Below are positions 3,195 to 13,719 of a stretch of 64,000 nucleotides of DNA, piece by piece (position 1 is the stretch's first letter; each line of letters starts with the position of its first letter). A model generated the notes under the pieces. It did no database searches. It was not told where the DNA came from and saw only the letters and a list, made by a program, of their open reading frames with translations. This DNA is from Candidatus Eiseniibacteriota bacterium. GTDB taxonomy: Bacteria > Eisenbacteria > RBG-16-71-46 > SZUA-252. Where the stretch lies: positions 5,017-69,016 of the forward strand of contig VBOX01000085.1 of NCBI GenBank assembly GCA_005893265.1, read 5' to 3'. Position numbers and translations under genes: made by a program.

Positions 3195-3433
3195 GACCTG
3201 GCCTCCAAGGTACGGGAAGGAATTTGCCTTATCGGCGTTACGCGACGCGGGCGGTCACCACGAAGTGTGGCGATTCGTGGTCGCCCTCATCAAGACGACG
3301 ATCGAGGAGGGCCGAAATCGACAGCGTCAACGGCAGGTGGCTCTATTGACCAAGCAGGATGGTCACGCTATCGCTCTCGAGGTTACTTGCGGCCACGTCG
3401 GGTTTGCCTGGCCACTGCTAACGCCACAGGAGA

Positions 3434-3991
3434 TTAGTCCGCCTTACCATCGATAAGGCGTCGTTGATCGCGAATGCTGTCGACGCGAGACAATTTCCAG
3501 CCCTCAGAAGTCCTCCTCCAGATCTCGCGCTGCGTGACCCATGTCTCCACGTGGTGCACCAGACCGTCATTCCGGCGCGCGATTCGATCGGCATGCTGGC
3601 GTACGACAGCACGCGCGAGGTCGCCGGAGACCTCGAGGCTGTCGATCTCGAAGGTCAGCGAAATCCAGCGGTCGATTCCATCAAGGAGCGCGCGGGTGGA
3701 CTGCTCCATCTCGGCGCGGTAGTGCAGCACGCTGTCCGCGGTCACGGCGTGAAAGTCATCTGTTCGGAGCGCCATGATGGCATTGAAATCCTTTGCGAGG
3801 AAGGCGCGTCGATTTTCGTCATACCGGTGCTGCAGCTCGCGTCGAACGGCGGCCGAATCTAGTGCGCTCAGGTGCTGTGAGGGGGGTGACTTAGCAGTAC
3901 CAGCGCAACCCATCGCGCAGAGCATGGCGATCGCCATGAGGAAACGCATCGCGAGCACTATGCACCTGGGAAGTCTGGTCATGCAGGGCAC
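3434..3991 (-). CDS. Lipoprotein with NTF2-like (SnoaL/DUF4440-like) fold
   Basis: Signal peptide with a lipobox (LCAMGCAG). The true start is probably the internal Met near 3949 (MRFLMAIAML). The C-terminal W..E.W motif is typical of the NTF2-like superfamily. Confidence 0.5.
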   Translation of the reverse strand: MPCMTRLPRCIVLAMRFLMAIAMLCAMGCAGTAKSPPSQHLSALDSAAVRRELQHRYDENRRAFLAKDFNAIMALRTDDFHAVTADSVLHYRAEMEQSTRALLDGIDRWISLTFEIDSLEVSGDLARAVVRQHADRIARRNDGLVHHVETWVTQREIWRRTSEGWKLSRVDSIRDQRRLIDGKAD

Positions 3992-4044
3992 GAATCATAC
4001 GATCTGATCACCCACCAAGAAGATAGCAAAACGCCCTTGACAAC

Positions 4045-4058
4045 TGCACAAATGTGCA
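4045..4058. promoter_or_regulatory. Candidate LexA operator (SOS box): perfect palindrome TGCAC-AAAT-GTGCA
   Basis: The perfect 14-bp palindrome TGCACAAATGTGCA lies 15 bp upstream of the lexA ATG. From memory it fits the TGCNC-N4-GTGCA LexA-box class reported for Fibrobacteres. No second copy was found by eye elsewhere in the window. Confidence 0.55.
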
Positions 4059-4072
4059 CTATCCTATGTGTC

Positions 4073-4813
4073 ATGAGCAAGCCCAATCCGCCCAAGACGC
4101 CGGGGGGTGCCCGGAAGCGCAAGCCCAAGCGATTTGCCGCGATCGACGTGGGGGCCGATCGCGAGCAGGCGGTCCTGGACATGATTGCGGGGTCGCTTCG
4201 CGAGCAGGGACGGCCGCCCACGATCCGAGAAATCGGGGAGGCCTTCGGGATCGCCTCGACCAACGGGGTCCGCTACTACCTGGACCGCCTCGAGCGGGCG
4301 GGGAAGATCCACCGGGATCGCTGGACCTCGCGTGGGATCGGGCTCAAGGCGATTCCGGGAGGCGCCGCCGCGAGAGCATCCATCCCCGCGGTCCGCCCCA
4401 TTCCCGAGCACTCCACGCCACGCAACGCGATCGAAATTCCATTGCTGGGCCGCGTGGCCGCCGGCGCGCCGATTCTCGCCGAGGAAAATGTGGAGGACGT
4501 GCTCATCGTAGACGGCGCGTTCGTGCGGCCCGGCAAGCATTTCGCTCTCCGCGTGCGTGGGGACAGCATGAAGAACGCGGGGATCCTGGACGGCGACATC
4601 GCGATCGTGCACCACGACGCGCCGGTCAAGAGCGGAGAGATCGCGGTCGTGGTGATCGGCGAAGAGGCGACGGTGAAGCGCTTCTTCCCGCGTCGCGACA
4701 AGCTCCTCCTGATTCCCGAGAACGAGGACTACGAGCCGATCGAGGTGCGCCCGTCCGATCCCGATGTTCGGGTCGCGGGCAAGGTGGTGGGGGTTTTCCG
4801 GAGGCTTGGCTGA
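4073..4813 (+). CDS. lexA: LexA repressor (SOS regulator)
   Basis: An N-terminal wHTH (REIGEAFGIASTNGVRYYLDRLERAG) is followed by a linker and an S24 peptidase domain with catalytic Ser in the RVRGDSM motif and a Lys (KRF). The start is set at MSKPNPPK; the ORF-track start at 4037 would overlap the operator. Confidence 0.9.
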   Translation: MSKPNPPKTPGGARKRKPKRFAAIDVGADREQAVLDMIAGSLREQGRPPTIREIGEAFGIASTNGVRYYLDRLERAGKIHRDRWTSRGIGLKAIPGGAAARASIPAVRPIPEHSTPRNAIEIPLLGRVAAGAPILAEENVEDVLIVDGAFVRPGKHFALRVRGDSMKNAGILDGDIAIVHHDAPVKSGEIAVVVIGEEATVKRFFPRRDKLLLIPENEDYEPIEVRPSDPDVRVAGKVVGVFRRLG

Positions 4814-4815
4814 TG
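4799..4815 (+). repeat. 17-bp direct repeat copy 1 (CGGAGGCTTGGCTGATG), spanning the lexA stop and the next gene's start
   Basis: Exact 17-mer found again at 5232-5248. Contains a GGAGG RBS and ends in ATG. Confidence 0.8.
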
Positions 4816-5199
4816 ACACAGAGTCCAGTCGATACGGTCCGCCGGCTCGTCGCGGCGATCAACGCGGGTAACCTGGACGCCGCGGTCGCTCTCTACGAGC
4901 CTTCGGGAGTTCTCCTTTCCCCGGAGGGCGCCCCGGCCCGCGGTACGGCCGAGCTTCGCGCCGCGCTCGGAGGATTCATCGCGATGAAACCCAGGCTCGA
5001 GTCTCAGGCGGAGCGCGTCTTCGAATCGGGGGATCTCGCGCTCTACCTGAGTCGGTGGAGTCTCCACGGAACGGATCCCGGCGGGAAGCCGATCGCGCTC
5101 GCCGGGGAATCCACCGACGTGCTGCGGCGCCAGGCGGGCGGGAACTGGCTCATCGCGATCGACAATCCCTGGGGAGTGAAGACGCTGCCGCCCGCGTAG
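4813..5199 (+). CDS. NTF2-like / SnoaL-like (ketosteroid isomerase-like, DUF4440-type) protein
   Basis: 129-aa ORF whose ATG overlaps the lexA TGA (ATGA). Its pattern (VRRLVAAINAGNLDAAVALYEP...G....G) is typical of the NTF2-like superfamily. Confidence 0.6.
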   Translation: MTQSPVDTVRRLVAAINAGNLDAAVALYEPSGVLLSPEGAPARGTAELRAALGGFIAMKPRLESQAERVFESGDLALYLSRWSLHGTDPGGKPIALAGESTDVLRRQAGGNWLIAIDNPWGVKTLPPA

Positions 5200-5231
5200 G
5201 GAGGCTGACCGGGTTACTCGGGCTGGCATAT

Positions 5232-5248
5232 CGGAGGCTTGGCTGATG
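5232..5248 (+). repeat. 17-bp direct repeat copy 2 (CGGAGGCTTGGCTGATG)
   Basis: Identical to 4799-4815. Supplies the RBS and ATG of the small ORF at 5246. Confidence 0.8.
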
Positions 5249-5542
5249 GTCCATGCGAACTCATTTCCCAAGGCAAGCGACGGTTACTTCATGATCGAGT
5301 CGATCCACGATCCCATCGAAGTCATCACGATGTTCGGAAACGGAAAGATGCGCCCCATCCGATTCCGCTGGAAGAACAAGATCGTGAAGGTGGCCAAGGT
5401 GACGGGTGATTGGGTCCGCCACGAGGGGCAGAACAAGATCCACTACTTCGCGCTCCTGGCGGACAGCTCGGATTATTACGAGATCTGCTACAACGCGAAG
5501 GATATGACCTGGCAGCTCACCCGCGTCTGGATGGAAGGGTGA
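5246..5542 (+). CDS. Small uncharacterised protein (98 aa), AT-richer than its surroundings, immediately upstream of dinB
   Basis: An intact ORF with RBS+ATG supplied by the repeated 17-mer. It ends 6 nt before the dinB GTG start. Its composition is visibly less GC-rich than flanking genes. No family recognised. Confidence 0.45.
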   Translation: MVHANSFPKASDGYFMIESIHDPIEVITMFGNGKMRPIRFRWKNKIVKVAKVTGDWVRHEGQNKIHYFALLADSSDYYEICYNAKDMTWQLTRVWMEG

Positions 5543-5548
5543 CAGGCG

Positions 5549-6745
5549 GTGCGGGTCGTGCTGCACCTCGACATGGACTCGTTTTTCGCCTCGGTCGAAG
5601 AGAAGCTGAACCCGCGCCTCAAGGGGAAGCCGATCCTCGTCGGTGGCACGGAGCGGCGCGGTGTCGTCGCCTCGGCGAACTACGCGGCGCGCCCGTTCGG
5701 GATTCACGCCGGGATGCCCATGGCGGAGGCAAGGCGGCTCTGCCCGCACGCGGTCTTCGTCGAGGGTAATCCCCAGAAGTACGTCCACACGTCGCTTCAA
5801 TTCCTCGACGTATTGAAGAGCTTCACCCCCGCGGTGGAGCCGTTTAGCATCGATGAGGCGTTCCTCGATCTCACCCAGGTGCCTTATCCAGGCCGCCCCT
5901 CTCCCGAGGAACGCGACCCGGCGGTGATCCTCGACTCCGCGATCCCGGTCGCCCACGCGATCCAGCGCGCGGTCCAGCGACGCGTCGGGCTCACCGCCAC
6001 GATCGGGATCGCGCCCAACAAATACATCGCGAAGATGGCGAGCGGGGTGCAGAAGCCCCGGGGGCTCACAGTGTTGACCCTCGAGCGCTACCGTGAGCGG
6101 TTTTGGGAACGTGGGGTCCAAGAATTATGGGGGATCGGCGAAAAGACGAAGGAAGCGCTCGCCAAGCTCGGCATACGCACGATCGGACAGCTCGCGAAGT
6201 TTCCGCGTGAGTTCCTCACCTACCATTTCGGATTGAACGGCGAGCGGATGCAGGAGGCTGCGCTGGGACGCGACGAGAACCCGGTCATTCCGTACTACGA
6301 AGGGGTGCCAGTAAAATCGATGGGGCACGAGATCACGCTTTCGGAGGACGTCTCGGACAAAGAGGCGCTCAAGGCGCAACTGCTGCGTCTAAGCGACATG
6401 GTAGGCCGGCGGCTCCGCGCGGACGGCTACCTGGGAAGAATCATTTCCGTGAAGATCCGCGACTCGAAATTCCGTACCACGATCCGCCAGCGCGCGCTCC
6501 CGGAGGTTGTGGACGATGAGCACGAGATTTTCCACACGGCCGCATTGCTCCTCGAGGAGCATTGGGACGGGAGGCCTCTGCGGTTGATCGGAGTTTCCGT
6601 CTCGGGGCTGGTTTCCGCAGCGGGACACTACCAGCACAGCCTCTTCGGCCAGGATGAGCATCGTAGGAAGTTGCTCGAGGCGGTGGATTCGTTGAGAGAT
6701 CGCTTTGGGGAGACCTCGTTGGTGAAAGCTGGGGTGTTGCGGTGA
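5549..6745 (+). CDS. dinB: DNA polymerase IV (Y-family translesion polymerase)
   Basis: Starts VRVVLHLDMDSFFASVE (Y-family catalytic DMD motif), with a little-finger domain C-terminally. Length 398 aa; the start codon is GTG. Confidence 0.9.
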   Translation: MRVVLHLDMDSFFASVEEKLNPRLKGKPILVGGTERRGVVASANYAARPFGIHAGMPMAEARRLCPHAVFVEGNPQKYVHTSLQFLDVLKSFTPAVEPFSIDEAFLDLTQVPYPGRPSPEERDPAVILDSAIPVAHAIQRAVQRRVGLTATIGIAPNKYIAKMASGVQKPRGLTVLTLERYRERFWERGVQELWGIGEKTKEALAKLGIRTIGQLAKFPREFLTYHFGLNGERMQEAALGRDENPVIPYYEGVPVKSMGHEITLSEDVSDKEALKAQLLRLSDMVGRRLRADGYLGRIISVKIRDSKFRTTIRQRALPEVVDDEHEIFHTAALLLEEHWDGRPLRLIGVSVSGLVSAAGHYQHSLFGQDEHRRKLLEAVDSLRDRFGETSLVKAGVLR

Positions 6746-6782
6746 CATGCGCGTGGGTGGGCTTTACGGTTGGGACGGCGCG

Positions 6783-7643
6783 ATGATTCTCCTGGGCACT
6801 TCCGGCTACTCCTATCCTGATTGGGACGGCGTCTTCTATCCGCCGGGACTCGCTCGCGCAAAGCAGCTCGATTTCTACGTCCGCCAGTTCAAGACGGTCG
6901 AGGTCAACTCTACCTATTACCGGATCCCGCCGCCTTCGACCTTCGCCGCCATGGAGCGGAGGTCGCCGGCGGATTTCGAGTTCGTGGTGAAGGTGCACCA
7001 CGACATGACCCACGCCCAGACGCGCGACCCCGAGGCGTACGCTGCGTTCCATTCCGCCCTGGAGCCCCTGCGCCGCGCGCACAAGCTGAGCGGCGTGCTC
7101 GCGCAGTTCCCGCAGGCGTTCCACCGCTCGGAGGACCACGAGCGCTTCCTGACCGAGCTCCAGGAGCGGATGGAGGGCGCGCCGCTCTTCGTGGAGTTCC
7201 GGCACAACTCGTGGATGCACGAGGACGTGTTCGAATTCCTGGAGCGCGCGAGCCTGGGGTACGTGAGCGTGGACGAGCCTTCGCTTCCCGGGCTCCTGCC
7301 ACCGGTGGCGCGCGCGACAGGGGGGCTGGCGTATGTACGGTTCCATGGAAGGAATGCCAAGAGCTGGTACGCCGGGGACCAGGGCAAGGACTCGGACACC
7401 CCAAATGGTGCTCCCGCGCGTCCTGCCCGCGATCGCCGGCTTCTTCGCTACGACTATCTCTACTCCGAGGCGGAGCTCAAGGAATGGGCGGACAAGATTC
7501 GCGAGCTGAACCAGAAGACGCAGAAGACATTCGTCTTCTTCAACAACTGCCACGCGGGGCAGGCCGCGACAAGCGCCAAGCTCATGCGAAAGCTCCTCGA
7601 TATGCCGGAGCCCAGTTTCGCCGAGCAGACTGGATTGTTGTGA
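6783..7643 (+). CDS. DUF72 (YecE-like) family protein
   Basis: LLGTSGYSYPDW..FYP ... YVRFHGRN...WY...YDYLYSEAELKEW are signature DUF72 motifs. The ORF could begin at 6747, overlapping the dinB stop; the internal Met at 6783 is preferred. Confidence 0.75.
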   Translation: MILLGTSGYSYPDWDGVFYPPGLARAKQLDFYVRQFKTVEVNSTYYRIPPPSTFAAMERRSPADFEFVVKVHHDMTHAQTRDPEAYAAFHSALEPLRRAHKLSGVLAQFPQAFHRSEDHERFLTELQERMEGAPLFVEFRHNSWMHEDVFEFLERASLGYVSVDEPSLPGLLPPVARATGGLAYVRFHGRNAKSWYAGDQGKDSDTPNGAPARPARDRRLLRYDYLYSEAELKEWADKIRELNQKTQKTFVFFNNCHAGQAATSAKLMRKLLDMPEPSFAEQTGLL

Positions 7644-7691
7644 TCATGGCTCAGCTGCCTCCTCATCACCACCCCGTGACAAGGTGTTTCC

Positions 7692-8912
7692 ATGCAGAAC
7701 TACGCGCTGACCCATGTTGGTGATGAAGTCCTCCTTCGCGATCTGGCGGCGATTGTGGTTCGAGATCGCGCCACCACGGCGACCCTCTTGGCCTGTATCG
7801 CCGAGGTCGACGCCCGCCGGTTGTATGTCCCGGCGGGCTACTCATCCATGCATGCCTATTGCGTGGGCGAGCTACGCCTGTCAGAGGATGCGGCAAAGAA
7901 ACGCATTCAGGCGGCTCGGGCGGCTCGGCAATTCCCGGCCATCTTCCATGCTATCGCTGAAGGCAGACTTCATTTGACTGGGGTCTGCCTGCTTGCGCCG
8001 TATCTCACGACGGAAAACGCGAGGGGATTGATCGAGTCAGCGACCCACAAGCGCAAGACCGAAATCGAGGAGCTGCTTGCGAGGCACTTTCAGCTTCCAG
8101 ACGTGCGAGTGCGGCCCACGACACCAATTCATTCGGAGCTCCAGCTGGATGTGCCATCGCATAGCGGAGGAGATCCCGCACACGACGACAGCGCGCTCAG
8201 CCAAGGTGCGCCAGAGCACATCCCTAAATTACAAAGTGCGGTGCTACCTACTACCGCCGAGCGATTTCTCATGCAGCTCATTATTGCCAAGAGCACCCAC
8301 GACAAGCTACTGCACGCCCAAGCTTTACTGAGCCATGCCCTCCCCACCGGAGATGTTGCGCAGGTGCTCGACCGGGCGCTTGATGCTCTGATCGCACAGC
8401 TCGAGAAGCGCAAGCTCGGGGTCGTCACCCGTCGGCCTCGACGATCGACTGCAGGAAATCGCCCGGCCCCCCGGGGCCGCTACGTCCCGGCCCCTGTCCG
8501 GCGCGCCGTCTGGGAGCGGGATCGGGGTCAATGCACCTTCGTGAGCGCGAGCGGGACCCGCTGCACGGCACGCCGCTTCCTGGAATTCGACCATGTCGAC
8601 CCCGTGGCGCTAGGGGGACAGGCGTCCGTAGATCGAATGCGGCTGCGATGCCGCGCCCATAACCAGTACGAAGCCGAGCGGGTGTTCGGCGCGCGTTTCA
8701 TGAGACGAAAGCGACACGATGCACGGCTCGCGGCGGCAGAAGGAAGCGCGCGGCCCTCCAAAGAGCACACCGAGGCCGTGTTGGCCGGCCTACGCGTCCT
8801 CGGATGTAAGGCCAACGAGGCGCGCCGTGCGGTTGCGTTATCGGAAACCATCCCAGGCACCACGCTCGAGGAGCGCATGCGGCTCGCTCTCAAATCTCTC
8901 CGACCAGGGTGA
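7692..8912 (+). CDS. HNH endonuclease of the DUF222 (13E12-like) family with a RuvA-C-like tail
   Basis: An N-terminal DUF222-like region is followed by an HNH motif (C..C....FLEFDHVDP....G......L.C..HN). The C-terminal segment (EAVLAGLRVLGCKANEARRAV) resembles RuvA domain III. The 5' third of the gene is visibly AT-richer. Confidence 0.7.
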   Translation: MQNYALTHVGDEVLLRDLAAIVVRDRATTATLLACIAEVDARRLYVPAGYSSMHAYCVGELRLSEDAAKKRIQAARAARQFPAIFHAIAEGRLHLTGVCLLAPYLTTENARGLIESATHKRKTEIEELLARHFQLPDVRVRPTTPIHSELQLDVPSHSGGDPAHDDSALSQGAPEHIPKLQSAVLPTTAERFLMQLIIAKSTHDKLLHAQALLSHALPTGDVAQVLDRALDALIAQLEKRKLGVVTRRPRRSTAGNRPAPRGRYVPAPVRRAVWERDRGQCTFVSASGTRCTARRFLEFDHVDPVALGGQASVDRMRLRCRAHNQYEAERVFGARFMRRKRHDARLAAAEGSARPSKEHTEAVLAGLRVLGCKANEARRAVALSETIPGTTLEERMRLALKSLRPG

Positions 8913-8919
8913 TATTCGC

Positions 8920-11337
8920 ATGAAGACCAATCCCGTACGTTCGAGCCAGCAAGTCGGCCTAGGGGATCTGCTCGAACCTCAGCCGCGGCAGGCGGCGTCA
9001 CCCGCCGTCGAGTCGATCGAGGAATTCAAGACGCTCCTTCTCTCGCTGCAAGACGCTCGCGGCCGCGGCGAGCCCGAGCTGGTGCGCGCCCAGAGCCTGC
9101 CCGCTCGCCCTGCCCGCTACGGAGAGCTGGCCGAGCCGCTGCCTCGTGCGCTCGCGCACGTCCTCGATGCGCAGGGGATCGGGCGGCTCTACTCGCACCA
9201 GGCCGAGGCGATCGATCGCGCGCGCGCGGGGAAACACGTGGTGGTCGCGACCGGCACCGCCTCGGGGAAGTCGCTCGGGTATCACATTCCCGTTCTTGAG
9301 CGGCTCCTCCTCGAGAGGGAGGCCACCGCGCTCTACCTCTTCCCCACGAAGGCGCTCGCGCAGGATCAGCTCCGGGGGCTGCATCGCTTTGCGGACGCCT
9401 CGCGCGAGCTCGCCCTTGCCCTCGCGACCGGCACGTACGACGGCGATACGCCCGCCCCGGCGCGCCGGAAGCTTCGCGAGCGCGGGAACGCCATCCTCAC
9501 GAATCCCGACATGCTCCACCAGGGAATCCTGCCTTACCACGCGCGGTGGAGCAGGTTCCTCTCGAATCTGCGCTTTGTCGTCGTCGATGAGGTGCACACC
9601 TATCGGGGCATCTTCGGGTCTCACGTCGCGAACGTGCTCCGCCGCTTGAGGCGCATCGCCCGCCATTACGGCGCCGAGCCCCAATTCCTTCTCTCCTCGG
9701 CGACCGTCCGGAATCCACAAGAGCTGGCCGAGATTTTGGTGGGAGACGATGTCCACATCGTGGACAACGACGGCTCGCCGCGGGGCCCGAAACTCTTCGT
9801 CCTCTGGAACCCGCGCACCTTCGGCCCCGATTCGCCCGAGCGGCGAAGCGCCTCCGTCGATGCGGAGCGGATCCTGGTGGCCCTCATGAAGCGCGGGGTC
9901 CAGTCCATCGTCTTCACCAAAGCGCGCGTCGTCGCCGAGCTGATCTACCGCTACGCCCGCGAGCGGCTGGAGCGTGAGTCGCGGGGCCTGGCGGATCTCT
10001 TGAGCCCCTATAGAGGCGGGTACCTGCCCGAAGAAAGACGCGCGATCGAGCGACGGTTGTTCGACGGAGAGCTGCGCGGCGTCATATCGACCAACGCGCT
10101 CGAGCTTGGGATCGACGTCGGCTCGCTCGATGCCTCCATCCTCGTGGGATTCCCGAACACGATCGCGAGCACGTGGCAACAGGCGGGGCGCTCGGGCCGA
10201 AAGCAGGCGCCTTCGCTCGCGGTCGTGGTCGCATACGAGGACCCGGTCGACCAGTACCTCATGAGGCATCCTTCCTACTTCTTCGGCCAGTCGCCGGAAA
10301 ACGCGGTCCTGGATCCCGAGAACCCCTACGTGCTTGCCTCGCAGCTCTCGTGCGCCGCCTACGAGCTTCCTTTGAGGGAGGAGGACGAAGCGGTTTTCGG
10401 TCGCCGCGCCACGGCGATCGCCGAGCTTCTCGAGGAGGAAGGCTCGTTCAAGTCGCTCGACGGGCTCCGCTACTGGTCCTCCGCGGAGTACCCGGCGGGG
10501 AAGGTGAATCTGCGAACGATCTCGGACGACACATTCACCATCCTCGACCAGACGCGCGAGAACGCGGTCCTGGGCACGGTCGATTCGATCAGCGCGCCGG
10601 AGCTGTTGTATCCAGAAGCGATCTATCTTCACGAAGGCGACACCTATTTCGTCCGCGATCTTGATTTGAAGCAAAAGATTGCCTACGTCGAGCCGCGAGG
10701 GGTGGACTACTACACACAACCCGTGCTCGACACGCACTTGAAGCTCGAGGAGACGCGCGAATCGAAGAAGCTCGGAGGCGAGACGATCGGACTCGGGCCG
10801 GCGGCGGTTTCGTGGGCGACCGTCGCGATGAAGAAGATCCGGTTCCGGAGCCTCGACGCCATCGGCTATCACCCGCTGGATCTTCCACGGCAGAAGCTGG
10901 ACACCGTGGCGCTCTGGATCCAGCCGGGAGAGGGAACGCGAAATCAGGTCAAGATCGCCGGAATGAACCCGCGCGAGGGGATGTCGGGACTTCGCAACCT
11001 TCTCATCACTATTCTTCCGCTTCACGTCATGTGCGACCGGCCCGACATCGGCGGGATCCTGGACAGTGCGAATCTTGGAGAGCCCACGATTTTCATCTAC
11101 GACCGGTATCCGGGCGGACTGGGGTACGCCGAGCGCGGGTACGCGATCATCGGGGAGCTTTTGAGCGCTTCGCTCCGGCTGGTCGAGGACTGCCCGTGCG
11201 AGCTGGGATGTCCCTCCTGTGTCGGGCTACCTGTGCTGCGCCCCGCCCAACAGCAGGACCCGGATCTTTACGGAGGCTGGCCGATCCCGAGCAAGGCGGC
11301 GACCGTAGCGCTGCTGCGGCGGATGCTCGGCCGGTGA
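8920..11337 (+). CDS. mrfA: DEXH-box helicase with C-terminal DUF1998 zinc-finger domain (MrfA/YprA-like)
   Basis: Walker A (GTASGKS), a DEVH box (VVVDEVHTY) and helicase C motifs (QQAGRSGR) are present. The C-terminal Cys cluster DCPCELGCPSCVG is typical of DUF1998. The start is set at MKTNPV (ATG 8920), in frame with the longer track ORF. Confidence 0.8.
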   Translation: MKTNPVRSSQQVGLGDLLEPQPRQAASPAVESIEEFKTLLLSLQDARGRGEPELVRAQSLPARPARYGELAEPLPRALAHVLDAQGIGRLYSHQAEAIDRARAGKHVVVATGTASGKSLGYHIPVLERLLLEREATALYLFPTKALAQDQLRGLHRFADASRELALALATGTYDGDTPAPARRKLRERGNAILTNPDMLHQGILPYHARWSRFLSNLRFVVVDEVHTYRGIFGSHVANVLRRLRRIARHYGAEPQFLLSSATVRNPQELAEILVGDDVHIVDNDGSPRGPKLFVLWNPRTFGPDSPERRSASVDAERILVALMKRGVQSIVFTKARVVAELIYRYARERLERESRGLADLLSPYRGGYLPEERRAIERRLFDGELRGVISTNALELGIDVGSLDASILVGFPNTIASTWQQAGRSGRKQAPSLAVVVAYEDPVDQYLMRHPSYFFGQSPENAVLDPENPYVLASQLSCAAYELPLREEDEAVFGRRATAIAELLEEEGSFKSLDGLRYWSSAEYPAGKVNLRTISDDTFTILDQTRENAVLGTVDSISAPELLYPEAIYLHEGDTYFVRDLDLKQKIAYVEPRGVDYYTQPVLDTHLKLEETRESKKLGGETIGLGPAAVSWATVAMKKIRFRSLDAIGYHPLDLPRQKLDTVALWIQPGEGTRNQVKIAGMNPREGMSGLRNLLITILPLHVMCDRPDIGGILDSANLGEPTIFIYDRYPGGLGYAERGYAIIGELLSASLRLVEDCPCELGCPSCVGLPVLRPAQQQDPDLYGGWPIPSKAATVALLRRMLGR

Positions 11338-12221
11338 TCTCCTCCACGCTTCGGCAACGGATCGGGGAGATGCTCCGCGGCGAGGCTGCAGCTGGTCGCG
11401 CTGGCACGACGCTTGACCCCGCCGTGCGCCGTCCGCGCGAGCAGCGGATCGTACCCACTTCGATCGAGGACATCCTTCCCGGGGGCATGTTGATCGGTCG
11501 GGAGGGAGCCGTCTTCGTTCACGAACGGCTCTACACGGAGCTGAACGAGCGCCCGACCCCTCTGCTCAAAAAGTACGAGCAGATCGGGAGGCTGCCGGAC
11601 CCCGACGAGGCTCCCGTGCCCCACACGCTCCCTGAAGCGATCGAGGCGCTGGATCCGCCCGAGCGAGGACTCTTCCGGAAGTTCGGGCATCGCCGTATGC
11701 TGTTCCTCGATATCGAGACGTGCGGGCTTCAGTCGCAGCCTGTCTTTCTCGTCGGGCTCTGTCATGTCGGGGAGAGGAATCTCGTCTTGAGGCAGCTCTT
11801 CGCCCGCGACTACGCCGAGGAGCGTTCCCTGATCGCGGAGGTGGAGCGGGTTCTGGGCGAGCACGATTTTCTCGTCACCTACAATGGGAAGACCTTCGAC
11901 CTTCCGTTCCTGCGCCACCGCGCCGTGTACCACCGGCTGCGCTTCGAGACCCGGATCCCGCACCTGGACCTTCTCTGGATGGTGAGGCGCCGATGGAAGG
12001 ATCGTCTGCCCGATTGCAGACTCAAGACGCTCGAATGGCGCGTGCTGCGACGCCTGCGAGCAGGGGACATCGACGGCTCCGAGATTCCCGGCGCCTATCA
12101 CGAGTACGTGAAGCACGGCCAGCCGCACCGGCTCCTCCCTGTGTTCCACCACAACCTGCTCGATGTGGTCGCGATGGTTGAGCTTCTTCCGAGGCTCTTC
12201 GAGCCGGAGGAGGAGAGGTGA
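11334..12221 (+). CDS. mrfB: DEDDh 3'-5' exonuclease, RNase H-like (MrfB/YprB-like)
   Basis: Exo motifs I (FLDIETCGL), II (YNGKTFDLPFL) and III (HHNLLDVVAM) are present. The in-frame GTG at 11334 overlaps the helicase TGA (GTGA coupling); the alternative ATG is at 11370. Confidence 0.65.
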   Translation: MISSTLRQRIGEMLRGEAAAGRAGTTLDPAVRRPREQRIVPTSIEDILPGGMLIGREGAVFVHERLYTELNERPTPLLKKYEQIGRLPDPDEAPVPHTLPEAIEALDPPERGLFRKFGHRRMLFLDIETCGLQSQPVFLVGLCHVGERNLVLRQLFARDYAEERSLIAEVERVLGEHDFLVTYNGKTFDLPFLRHRAVYHRLRFETRIPHLDLLWMVRRRWKDRLPDCRLKTLEWRVLRRLRAGDIDGSEIPGAYHEYVKHGQPHRLLPVFHHNLLDVVAMVELLPRLFEPEEER

Positions 12222-12676
12222 AGCAAATCCGACTAGTAATTCTTGTCCTGGTTACTCTATTCGCGGGGTGCTCGGAGCAGCGATCAGGGTCACCCGTATC
12301 GAAGGCCCCCGACTCAACTAAGGCAGGTGGTCCCGCCGAAGATTGGTTGGCAACCACTAGGAGAGAGCGCGCGCTGAGTCCGCACCCCATACCGCAGTCG
12401 GATGTCGATCGCCTCAGGAGCCTCGGTTTCAAGAACCCAATCCGAGACATCATTGCGGACCTTCAAAGACACCCGGAGGTATTGCCGTTCCAGCCTCCGA
12501 AGGGTGGGAGCCGATTCGGGTTTTACGATTCGACCCAGATTCGGATCCTAACGGACGACTGGGTATACGCATACACTGAGGACGGCCATGTTGCGCGGCC
12601 GGTTCTGTTGAGATACCGGGTCCAAGAAGGCGGTCAAATTGAATGGAAGGTCATCGCGACGGATGGCGGCGAGTAG
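12218..12676 (+). CDS. Hypothetical lipoprotein
   Basis: Signal peptide plus lipobox (LFAGCS). Starts at an ATGA overlap with the exonuclease stop. AT-richer composition. Confidence 0.45.
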   Translation: MKQIRLVILVLVTLFAGCSEQRSGSPVSKAPDSTKAGGPAEDWLATTRRERALSPHPIPQSDVDRLRSLGFKNPIRDIIADLQRHPEVLPFQPPKGGSRFGFYDSTQIRILTDDWVYAYTEDGHVARPVLLRYRVQEGGQIEWKVIATDGGE

Positions 12677-12813: not shown

Positions 12814-12845
12814 CCTAAGACCCTAGGACCCTAGGACCCTAAGAC
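12814..12845. repeat. Tandem octamer repeat (CCTARGAC x4: CCTAAGAC CCTAGGAC CCTAGGAC CCTAAGAC)
   Basis: Read directly from the sequence. Lies 27 bp upstream of the ATG at 12873 and just 5' of the AAGGAGGA RBS. Units contain the CCTAGG palindrome. Confidence 0.6.
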
Positions 12846-12872
12846 TTTGTATCCTGAACAAGGAGGATCACA

Positions 12873-13373
12873 ATGAAAGCAATCAACCCCTGCTTGTGGT
12901 TCGACAACCAAGCCGAAGAAGCCGCGCGTTTTTACACCTCCATTTTCAAGGATTCCAAGATTGGGACCATTACCCGCTATGGAGATTCGGCGGCAGCGGC
13001 CGCCGGAAGGCCGAAGGGATCGGTGATGACCGTGACCTTCAAGCTCGATGGCCAGGAGTTCATGGCGCTGAACGGCGGCCCGATCTTCAAGTTCTCGGAG
13101 GCGATTTCGTTGATGGTGAACTGCGAAACGCAGGAAGAGATTGACCACTTCTGGACGAAGCTTTCGGAAGGTGGAGAAGAAGGGCCGTGCGGTTGGCTCA
13201 AGGACAAATTCGGCCTTTCCTGGCAAATCGTTCCCGCGATCATGGCCGAATGGATGAAGGACAGGGATACCACCCGATCCGAGAGGGTGATGGAGGCTCT
13301 CCTCAAGATGAAGAAGCTCGACATTAACGCCTTGAAGCAAGCGTACGAGGGCGAAAAGGCCGGAGTCCGCTGA
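12873..13373 (+). CDS. VOC-superfamily protein, PhnB / 3-demethylubiquinone-9 3-methyltransferase-domain type
   Basis: MKAINPCLWFDNQAEEAARFYTSIF...V.F.L.GQ.F.ALNGGP...F.EAIS are hallmarks of the PF06983 glyoxalase-like family. A strong RBS is present. Confidence 0.75.
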   Translation: MKAINPCLWFDNQAEEAARFYTSIFKDSKIGTITRYGDSAAAAAGRPKGSVMTVTFKLDGQEFMALNGGPIFKFSEAISLMVNCETQEEIDHFWTKLSEGGEEGPCGWLKDKFGLSWQIVPAIMAEWMKDRDTTRSERVMEALLKMKKLDINALKQAYEGEKAGVR

Positions 13374-13719
13374 CGGGGACCGCCAGCCCGGCCATCTGAC
13401 GCCGTCAGCGATTCGTCGCACGGGGGCCACCCGAGAGGCGTCTAGACGAAGTCAGATGCACGCTCGCCCAACGGCACGCGGTTTGCAAAGCCGCAGTATT
13501 GTGCCGCGGCCGGTGCGCCCCTGCTTGCGTGACGAGCACGCGGATCACGACCCGCTGGATGGGTAAGCCCGTGGACGGGGTGGTCGGAGGGGGAGGTGGA
13601 CGGCGCGGTGGAACCCGGCGCCGTCGCTCCCAGGGTGTGGTGGAGGGACCGCGCCTTGAGGTGTTGGGAAGCATCGTCCGCGACGGCCCCGGTCCACGCG
13701 GGACCGAACGAAGACTGGA

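Follow-up and report, generated by a model that had tools for sequence, protein, structure and literature searches.

Organization of the lexA-dinB locus

The window analyzed here, a 64-kb stretch (64,000 nt) of contig VBOX01000085.1 from a Candidatus Eiseniibacteriota bacterium (assembly GCA_005893265.1), carries lexA at the head of a run of same-strand genes that includes dinB, the gene for DNA polymerase IV (Pol IV). A first-pass annotation of this DNA had proposed an SOS operon composed of lexA, an NTF2-like gene, a small open reading frame (ORF; here called imuB-C after the family that its product resembles), dinB, and a DUF72 gene. The identities given there to lexA, the NTF2-like gene, dinB, and the DUF72 gene were borne out by Pfam, and the proposed set of genes stood; the end of the operon, however, was probably placed too early, as the run continues through orf406, mrfA, and mrfB to position 12676, the likely limit of the unit. 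The TGA of lexA and the ATG of the NTF2-like gene share one base (TGATG at 4811 to 4815), 6 nt separate the stop of the small ORF (5542) from the GTG start of dinB (5549), and 1 nt lies between the stop of dinB (6745) and the ATG of the DUF72 gene (6747). The earlier description of all junctions as overlaps or gaps of at most 7 nt applies to these three, but not to the 46 nt between the stop of the NTF2-like gene (5199) and the ATG of the small ORF (5246).

The lexA gene (4073 to 4813, + strand) encodes a protein of 246 residues with a winged helix-turn-helix DNA-binding domain (residues 29 to 88; Pfam LexA_DNA_bind, PF01726, 3.7e-14) and an S24 autopeptidase domain (residues 123 to 239; Peptidase_S24, PF00717, 1e-31). 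Its start at the ATG at 4073 is supported by a homologue of the same length that is 98% identical. The translation contains a VAAG cleavage site, the serine of GDSM, and the lysine of TVKRF, i.e., the Ala-Gly site and the Ser/Lys dyad for self-cleavage, and the segments GRVAAGAP, RGDSMKNAG, and EATVKRF are invariant in our LexA alignment (A5). The LexA homologues and loci nearest to those of the window bear the name Candidatus Eisenbacteria or Eiseniibacteriota. The usual assignment of Eisenbacteria is to the FCB superphylum, which also includes Fibrobacterota; in the NCBI taxonomy, the phylum appears among the candidate phyla only.

The dinB gene (5549 to 6745, + strand) encodes a protein of 398 residues, which matches the Pfam domains IMS (1.5e-47), IMS_C (3e-30), and HHH as well as the NCBIfam model for DNA polymerase IV (2.5e-108). 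Because the translation retains both catalytic motifs, DMDSFFASVE and SIDEAFLD, DinB should be catalytically active. In the DinB tail, the sequence QHSLF (residues 361 to 365; 6629 to 6643) resembles a β-clamp-binding pentapeptide, and the stretch that follows it, RRKLLEAVDSLRDRFGETSLVKAG (6653 to 6745), resembles by eye the RecA N-terminal oligomerisation motif of Y-family polymerases (PMC6511836) and can be aligned by eye with a stretch of E. coli RecA. A search of the tail for such a motif gave no match in Pfam and a sole BLASTP alignment (E 2.5), which lies elsewhere in RecA.

A candidate LexA operator in the lexA promoter

A promoter scan of positions 3400 to 9200 returned a sole sigma-70-like promoter, located directly upstream of lexA and composed of the -35 hexamer TTGACA (4037 to 4042, + strand) and the -10 hexamer TATCCT (4060 to 4065, + strand), with 10 of 12 consensus matches and a 17-nt spacer. 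The spacer is filled by the putative LexA operator TGCAC-AAAT-GTGCA (TGCACAAATGTGCA; 4045 to 4058, without assigned strand), the 3' end of which is separated by 14 nt from the lexA ATG. The first-pass annotation had already noticed this element and called it a perfect palindrome; it was found again between the -35 and -10 hexamers, and its 5-nt arms are indeed perfect inverted repeats, but the lack of self-complementarity in the 4-nt spacer AAAT makes the element an inverted repeat and not a palindrome over its full 14 nt. It fits the class TGCNC-N4-GTGCA, 14-bp sites in which 4 nt separate two inverted arms of 5 nt (TGCNC/GNGCA).

The exact form TGCACNNNNGTGCA occurs once in the window, compared to 0.01 copies expected from shuffles. 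With a weight matrix derived from related sites, the operator scores 24.7 bits, the runner-up in the window 7.4 bits, and the best sites of shuffled windows 8.4 to 16.8 bits; no second operator was found in the window by this matrix, and none before mrfA. Matches to the looser form TGCNCNNNNGTGCA with one mismatch occur in the window at chance level (13 seen, 12.9 expected). The possibilities that TGCACAAATGTGCA is a chance inverted repeat or an upstream terminator were rejected on the basis of its position within the promoter and its conservation.

The distance between the -10 hexamer and the lexA ATG (4073) is 7 nt and includes no Shine-Dalgarno sequence. Given this short distance and the missing Shine-Dalgarno sequence, the lexA mRNA probably has no leader or almost none. 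The same holds for lexA in six of the related loci described below (6 to 11 nt and no Shine-Dalgarno sequence in L001, L002, L097, L106, L115, and L121), which suggests that a leaderless or near-leaderless lexA mRNA is conserved in the clade.

Conservation and variation of the operator

The arrangement TTGACA-NN-TG[C/A]AC-N4-GT[G/T]CA-N-TATNNT recurs in 23 related loci (designated by L numbers) from several phyla, with the -35 hexamer TTGACA kept in the same register. Specifically, TTGACA-NN-TGCAC-N4-GTGCA-N-TATNNT precedes lexA in Eisenbacteria (L001, L002, and L088 to L090), and the same register is found before lexA in an Ignavibacteria locus (L006) and a Latescibacterota locus (L008). In the Eisenbacteria locus L013, the -35 hexamer and the box are 3 nt apart and the hexamers are weaker (TTGACT and TAGGAT); a 3-nt spacing is also present before lexA in L081 and L082, which are referred to as Zixibacteria-type according to the source name of the protein. 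Hybrid boxes occur as TGCAC..GTTCA in L003 and L004 and as TGAAC..GTGCA in L009 and L014, and the same promoter register is occupied by TGAAC-AAAT-GTTCA in L083 to L087 and, by direct sequence reading, by TAAAC-AAAT-GTTCA in L040. TGCAC-N4-GTGCA is thus a one-position variant of the classical LexA box GAAC-N4-GTTC. The recognition helix of LexA varies along with the box in alignment A5: it reads STNGV-R in the 11 aligned LexA proteins from loci with a C-type arm (TGCAC or GTGCA) on one or both sides of the box, which takes in the hybrids, and STNGV-E in the four from loci with TGAAC/TAAAC-AAAT-GTTCA. This co-variation, drawn from two clades, is suggestive of LexA residue 67 (codon 4271 to 4273) as a candidate determinant of C versus A at arm position 3.

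A metagenome scan for the pattern TTGACNNNTGCACAAATGTGCA gave at least 120 matching stretches, and 80 loci were examined; these contain 83 promoter instances, 73 of them with enough downstream sequence to be evaluated. Among the matches listed, 66 of the 73 evaluable instances precede SOS or repair genes. In 41 cases the gene is lexA (31), imuB-C (6), or dinB (4), and all 16 lexA instances for which the downstream sequence extends for roughly 1 kb or more are followed by imuB-C and/or dinB. About 25 of the 73 precede a small gene for a Zn-ribbon protein, and behind 21 of these genes stands one for a Hel308-like helicase. The Zn-ribbon protein has 60 to 110 residues and the C-terminal sequence CPDCGxGMxRQGxCxxCPxCGFxSC, and the helicase, of the DEXH type, has 800 to 900 residues and Pfam matches to DEAD, Helicase_C, and archaeal helicase domain 4. 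The pair is preceded by TTGACA-NN-TGCACAAATGTGCA-N-TATNNT in L094, L096, L099, L101, L105, L128, L129, and L138, and further such loci are L147, L148, L151, L154, L155, L158, L159, L162 to L165, L167, and L169; a homologue of this operon was not found in the window. The pair looks like an undescribed member of the SOS regulon. The box also lies upstream of dinB in L002 to L005, L098, L111, and L132 and upstream of imuB-C in L102, L108, L110, and L136, and from this distribution it seems to mark a regulon, more than a single site.

In view of these data, we consider it very improbable that the inverted repeat is the site of another regulator or a conserved feature of the promoter spacer and that LexA of this clade binds elsewhere. 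Such a reading could draw on the facts that LexA binding in the clade is deduced from sequence, that the Fibrobacter precedent for the box (see below) is unconfirmed, and that the LexA motif of Balneolaeota, also of the FCB group, is a very different direct repeat (PMC7739468). It is opposed by the company of the site, which in many lineages accompanies lexA, imuB-C, dinB, and an operon for a repair helicase, by the hybrids TGCAC..GTTCA and TGAAC..GTGCA that connect it to GAAC-N4-GTTC, and by the occurrence of STNGV-R in the 11 LexA proteins with a C-type arm versus STNGV-E in the four with an A-type box; furthermore, no other palindrome is common to these promoters.

As a side observation, the pattern also stands before several non-SOS genes, which from their sequences were judged to encode BrnT/BrnA-like toxin-antitoxin proteins (L104 and L143), a sigma-70-family factor (L116 and L170), and an HD-domain protein (L118). 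As the -10 region in L104/L143 and L116/L170 differs from TATNNT, these four sites may be chance matches.

Duplication of the promoter where dinB is separated from lexA

Operons that start with lexA and contain dinB are the rule among the relatives, and the order lexA-imuB-C-dinB-DUF72-(orf)-mrfA-mrfB, with overlaps or short gaps, is kept in L001, L089, and L090. In L002 to L005, the small ORF and dinB are kept apart by a block of opposite-strand genes (judged from sequence to be HAD-like, methyltransferase, NTF2-like, and MqsA-like genes), and precisely in these loci dinB possesses its own copy of the promoter and operator 70 to 90 nt upstream. The coordinates of the duplicates are 1894 to 1985 in L005, 2881 to 2990 in L002, 9144 to 9240 in L003, and 9709 to 9800 in L004; a further duplicate is present in L098, and the two-promoter arrangement was also found in the metagenomic contigs L102, L111, and L132. 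The copy on the dinB side carries the first codons of lexA fused to the last codons of imuB-C. In L005, this fusion leaves a mini-ORF of 14 codons (ATGATCAAG...GGTTGA), which ends 6 nt before the dinB start and may preserve translational coupling to dinB.

Where dinB is split from lexA, it has its own promoter and operator; this is strong evidence that selection maintains LexA control of dinB, and the strongest argument for a dependence of dinB on LexA. In the window, nothing separates dinB from imuB-C, and as the split relatives duplicate the box, dinB would here be read from the lexA promoter. The view of the first-pass annotation that dinB is plausibly under the LexA promoter thus gains support from both the duplication of promoter and operator and the conserved lexA-dinB order. 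That TGCACAAATGTGCA behaves as a LexA operator is supported by its overlap with the promoter, its conservation across related phyla, and its duplication before dinB where the operon is broken.

A recent insertion between lexA and the small ORF

The gene directly behind lexA (4813 to 5199, + strand) encodes an NTF2-like protein of 128 residues of the SnoaL_2/DUF4440 family (Pfam, 1e-14). A repeat search revealed that it is enclosed by a perfect 17-nt direct repeat, CGGAGGCTTGGCTGATG, with the left copy at 4799 to 4815 and the right copy at 5232 to 5248 (both + strand). The repeat spans the 3' end and stop codon of lexA together with a GGAGG ribosome-binding site and the ATG of the following gene, and the spacing of its copies sets the size of the insertion at 433 bp. 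In L089 and L090, the LexA proteins of which are 90 to 91% identical to that of the window, the junction is uninterrupted (...CGGAGGCTTGGCTGATGGTCCATGCG) and equals the window sequence minus the insert. The SnoaL gene is absent from L001 to L005, L089, and L090 (LexA 63 to 91% identical) and was found only in L088 (98% LexA identity), L125, L127, and L168, which are apparently contigs of the same species. It is a recent lineage-specific insertion. No transposase or integrase is evident among the ORFs and Pfam matches of the genes flanking it. Since the repeat duplicates the ribosome-binding site, stop codon, and ATG, both the SnoaL gene and imuB-C keep their translational coupling.

The first-pass annotation had counted the NTF2-like protein among candidate damage-response factors. 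The intact ribosome-binding site and the start-stop coupling do lead one to expect coexpression with lexA, and unrelated NTF2-like genes stand divergently beside LexA-box promoters elsewhere, namely, a DUF4440/SnoaL_3 gene (Pfam) at 3434 to 3991 (- strand) in the window and genes judged from sequence to be SnoaL-like next to the dinB promoter in L002 (2368 to 2800, - strand) and L004 (9209 to 9655, - strand). This divergent placement could reflect chance, given the abundance of such genes, or divergent coregulation. A genuine, newly recruited damage-response role nevertheless seems improbable to us: related loci contain no detectable homologue of the protein, L133 runs lexA-imuB-C-dinB without the gene while L127 has it despite an identical 48-nt promoter/start stretch, and genomes of this sort abound in NTF2-like genes. 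Because of its absence from the relatives with LexA proteins of 63 to 91% identity, the SnoaL gene is probably a passenger without a conserved role in the operon.

The small ORF as a probable gene for a standalone ImuB-C-like protein

The small ORF (5246 to 5542, + strand), which the first-pass annotation had left as a protein of unknown kind, encodes an all-β protein of 98 residues with a Pfam match to DUF6504 (E 4e-4) that is below the family threshold. A profile search collected 170 relatives of the protein, and 66 of the 101 aligned members match DUF6504 (best value, 7.7e-8); an exhaustive profile search gave 1104 cluster representatives, the top 150 of which are all 74 to 122 residues long. 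One apparent homologue of 127 residues (P0136), which by its sequence looks like a frameshifted lexA/imuB-C fusion, was excluded from the alignments. The AlphaFold2 model of the small protein has a predicted local distance difference test (pLDDT) value of 91 and seven strands. The alignments show no variation at W89 and W56 and conservation of R39/R41. The context look-ups always placed the small ORF next to lexA and/or dinB: the order is small ORF-dinB-lexA in L083 to L087 and lexA-small ORF in L081 and L082, and the same associations are present in L006 and L040.

For comparison with ImuB, imuB and dnaE2 were located on pSymA of S. meliloti by direct reading, as a tblastn search of DinB against plasmids was dominated by UmuC and DinB matches. 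DUF6504 matches residues 430 to 500 of the 505 residues of S. meliloti ImuB with a sub-threshold E value of 6.5e-3, and the top match of the small-protein profile in a 49-kb stretch of pSymA is the same ImuB region, again below threshold (E 0.04). The ImuB-C superfamily has been described as comprising β-rich proteins of about 80 residues with a conserved C-terminal tryptophan that are mostly encoded beside, and associated with, DinB and LexA, with GSU0042 as the prototype (PMC3765255); the term DUF6504 was not encountered in the literature searched. The 98-residue protein is consistent with a divergent DUF6504 protein of this standalone SOS family, on matches that are sub-threshold.

DUF72 and the downstream genes

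The DUF72 gene (6747 to 7643, + strand; alternative start at an internal ATG at 6783) encodes a TIM-barrel protein of 298 residues, which matches PF01904 over profile positions 1 to 216 of 217 (1.4e-63) and PDB entry 1vpq (3.7e-51). It is a conserved partner in the operon and follows dinB in all the Eisenbacteria-type loci and in several metagenomic ones (L001 to L005, L089, L090, L111, L121, L132, L160, and L168). DUF72 genes are reported to be enriched near damage-inducible SOS-type polB2 operons and to encode a TIM barrel with a relationship to UV-damage endonuclease (PMC11791011). After a gap of 48 nt (7644 to 7691) comes orf406 (7692 to 8912, + strand), which encodes 406 residues with a weakly HNH-like C-terminal region (weak matches to HNH_5, IscB-HNH, and RuvA_C). 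An ORF is kept here in the closest relatives only, with a homologue in L005, ORFs of 365 and 375 codons in L089 and L090, and none in L001 to L004; orf406 may represent an HNH element, domesticated or selfish, that resides within the operon.

The ATG of the next gene (8917 to 11337, + strand) lies 4 nt past the orf406 stop. Its product is an MrfA-like DEXH helicase with the Pfam domains DEAD, Helicase_C, WHD_HRQ1, and MZB, which matches TIGR03817 at 3e-225, yet below the cut-off of that model. The mrfA gene stands directly behind the DUF72 gene in L001 to L004, and in L005, L089, and the window an extra ORF intervenes between the two; the extra ORF is also present in L090, the contig of which ends before the next gene can be identified. 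The stop of mrfA is overlapped (GTGA) by the GTG start of a gene for an MrfB-like RNase H-fold exonuclease (11334 to 12221, + strand; Pfam RNase_H_2, 2e-32), homologues of which are present in L001 and L089. The last gene of the same-strand run, orf152 (12218 to 12676, + strand; 152 codons), overlaps mrfB by 4 nt, and the gene after it (12831 to 13430) is on the opposite strand.

No promoter was predicted before the DUF72 gene, mrfA, or mrfB in the scan of 3400 to 9200, and no operator in the window. Terminator-like hairpins are fewer in this region than expected by chance (one seen, 3.5 expected), and the single candidate, at 7612 to 7633, was rejected because its fold is no better than that of shuffles (z -0.76). 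It is conceivable, if doubtful, that LexA controls lexA alone or lexA and dinB and that the DUF72 gene, orf406, mrfA, mrfB, and orf152 have constitutive promoters of their own. The border between the DUF72 gene and orf406 would suit this view with its 48-nt gap and the weak hairpin, which has a T-poor tail, and the absence of orf406 from L001 to L004 marks the junction as evolutionarily fluid; in addition, a box before the mrfA-like gene, which the first-pass annotation had envisaged, was found neither in the window nor in any relative locus. On the other side, besides the poor score of the hairpin, gaps or overlaps of at most 4 nt join orf406 to mrfA, mrfA to mrfB, and mrfB to orf152, and the DUF72 gene and mrfA lie downstream of dinB in every relative, even behind a duplicated box (dinB-DUF72-mrfA in L111); lexA-dinB-mrfA is found in other lineages as well (L103, L137, and L144).

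Proposed regulation of the operon

Taken together, the genes from lexA onward very likely constitute an autoregulated SOS operon that would work as follows. A LexA dimer would bind TGCAC-AAAT-GTGCA and, to judge from the position of the site, occupy the spacer between -35 and -10 and exclude RNA polymerase. Upon DNA damage, as known for the family, filaments of RecA on single-stranded DNA would trigger self-cleavage of LexA and open the promoter. The order and spacing of the genes suggest that a near-leaderless transcript then supplies LexA, the ImuB-C-like adaptor, Pol IV, and the DUF72 protein, and read-through probably adds the HNH-like ORF, the MrfA-like helicase, the MrfB-like exonuclease, and the 152-residue protein. 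The ImuB-C-like protein is probably a noncatalytic partner of Pol IV in its targeting to, or assembly at, lesions; incision of lesions, unwinding, and resection are probably contributed by the DUF72 protein and MrfAB, such that excision and gap filling would be coinduced. The SnoaL insertion, having copied the junction of lexA stop, Shine-Dalgarno sequence, and ATG, would ride along outside the conserved function.

Several points weigh against this interpretation. LexA binding, the single transcript, and damage induction are all derived here from sequence. Scans for consensus promoters and terminators are weak tools for a candidate phylum with 65% G+C, and internal promoters are possible, most likely in the 46-nt gap (5200 to 5245) and the 48-nt gap (7644 to 7691). 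The ImuB-C assignment relies on sub-threshold profile matches (E 4e-4 and 6.5e-3), and the nuclease role of the DUF72 protein on the structural comparison in PMC11791011, the single-sequence AlphaFold model made here being unusable at a pLDDT of 38.6. The proposed RecA-binding motif at the DinB C terminus is visible by eye only, with BLASTP and Pfam negative. Finally, the classic SOS genes recA and uvrA are absent from the loci examined (for recA, the window and the first 91 relative loci fetched), and the comparison of operators covers other genes.

A more far-reaching version, which we put forward tentatively, is that LexA of Eisenbacteria-like bacteria induces a whole lesion-processing line from one promoter, with a UV-damage endonuclease-like DUF72 enzyme, unwinding and resection by MrfA/MrfB, and filling by ImuB-C-guided Pol IV, and that the same operator also drives the undescribed Zn-ribbon and Hel308-like SOS operon in related lineages. 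If true, this would provide the first defined biochemical roles for DUF72 and ImuB-C. As it stands, the widespread DUF72 and standalone ImuB-C/DUF6504 proteins gain a testable genetic context beside Pol IV and MrfAB, and the locus would extend the lexA-imuB-C-Pol IV cassette to a candidate phylum without cultured members. The duplication of promoter and operator whenever the operon is split speaks for the strength of selection for LexA control of Pol IV, and the defined operator can be used for computational mapping of the SOS regulon in these uncultured soil bacteria.

Relation to known systems

The core arrangement lexA-imuB-C-dinB matches the design of the Geobacter lexA-imuB-C-polY operon. 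The first-pass annotation had mentioned lexA-dinB operons of Geobacter, and these are real: lexA-imuB-C-polY is described, with reference to Jara 2003, as damage induced and transcribed as a single unit (PMC6511836). The operon of Geobacter sulfurreducens (lexA1/lexA2-dinB) has the same order of lexA, an all-β ImuB-C-like protein of about 80 to 100 residues, and an intact Y-family polymerase, and it shares with the window the palindrome in its own promoter, predicted here to serve autoregulation, and the expression of the polymerase only together with the repressor gene, likewise predicted for the window. The operators differ, with TGCAC-N4-GTGCA here and GGTT-N10-AACC in Geobacter (PMC8565304), and, unlike the Geobacter operon, the present one has the conserved extras DUF72, MrfA, and the MrfB-like exonuclease, plus the SnoaL insertion. 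The groups listed for GeoPolY-like polymerases are δ-proteobacteria, Deferribacteres, and Planctomycetes, Eisenbacteria not being among them (PMC6511836). As the design itself is already known from Geobacter, the new leads appear modest and consist in the linkage to DUF72 and MrfAB, the promoter duplication, and the Zn-ribbon/helicase operon.

For Fibrobacter succinogenes, Mazon and colleagues are said to have described in 2004 the LexA box TGCNC-N4-GTGCA; this consensus is unconfirmed, as our full-text literature search found no statement of it. The Fibrobacter box would have the same 14-bp architecture and arms, whereas the box described here is fixed inside the -35/-10 spacer and always has A as the middle base of its left arm. 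The LexA boxes of Gram-positive bacteria and Actinobacteria (GAAC-N4-GTTC) and of Verrucomicrobia (TGTTC-N4-GAACA; PMC4951493) are likewise inverted repeats with a 4-nt spacer bound by canonical LexA; they have A/T at arm position 3, in contrast to C/G here, a difference that tracks Arg versus Glu after STNGV in the two clades compared.

With the ImuA-ImuB-DnaE2 mutasome, the locus would share the nature of a LexA-controlled mutagenic cassette, and the small protein the family of the ImuB C-terminal domain (by sub-threshold matches); unlike the mutasome, in which ImuB is inactive, it has an intact Y-family protein and lacks ImuA and DnaE2. MrfAB of Bacillus subtilis is a helicase/exonuclease pair for mitomycin repair. 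In domain composition it equals the pair of the window, with a DEXH helicase that bears the MrfA Zn-binding domain and, encoded behind it, an RNase H-fold exonuclease, and the likeness was drawn from these domains; unlike the B. subtilis pair, the genes here belong to a lexA/dinB gene run behind a LexA box.

Additional features of LexA

Two regions of LexA in this clade, given here with the window coordinates, lie outside the assigned domains. Residues 1 to 28 (4073 to 4156) form a basic N-terminal extension rich in proline, lysine, and arginine (MSKPNPPKTPGGARKRKPKRF...), and the DNA-binding domain is joined to the peptidase domain by a linker of unusual length, about 35 residues (4337 to 4438). 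The LexA proteins of L006, L081, L083, and L040, with approximately 204 residues, have neither the extension nor the long linker. As a speculation, the extension might contact the A/T-rich spacer of the operator.

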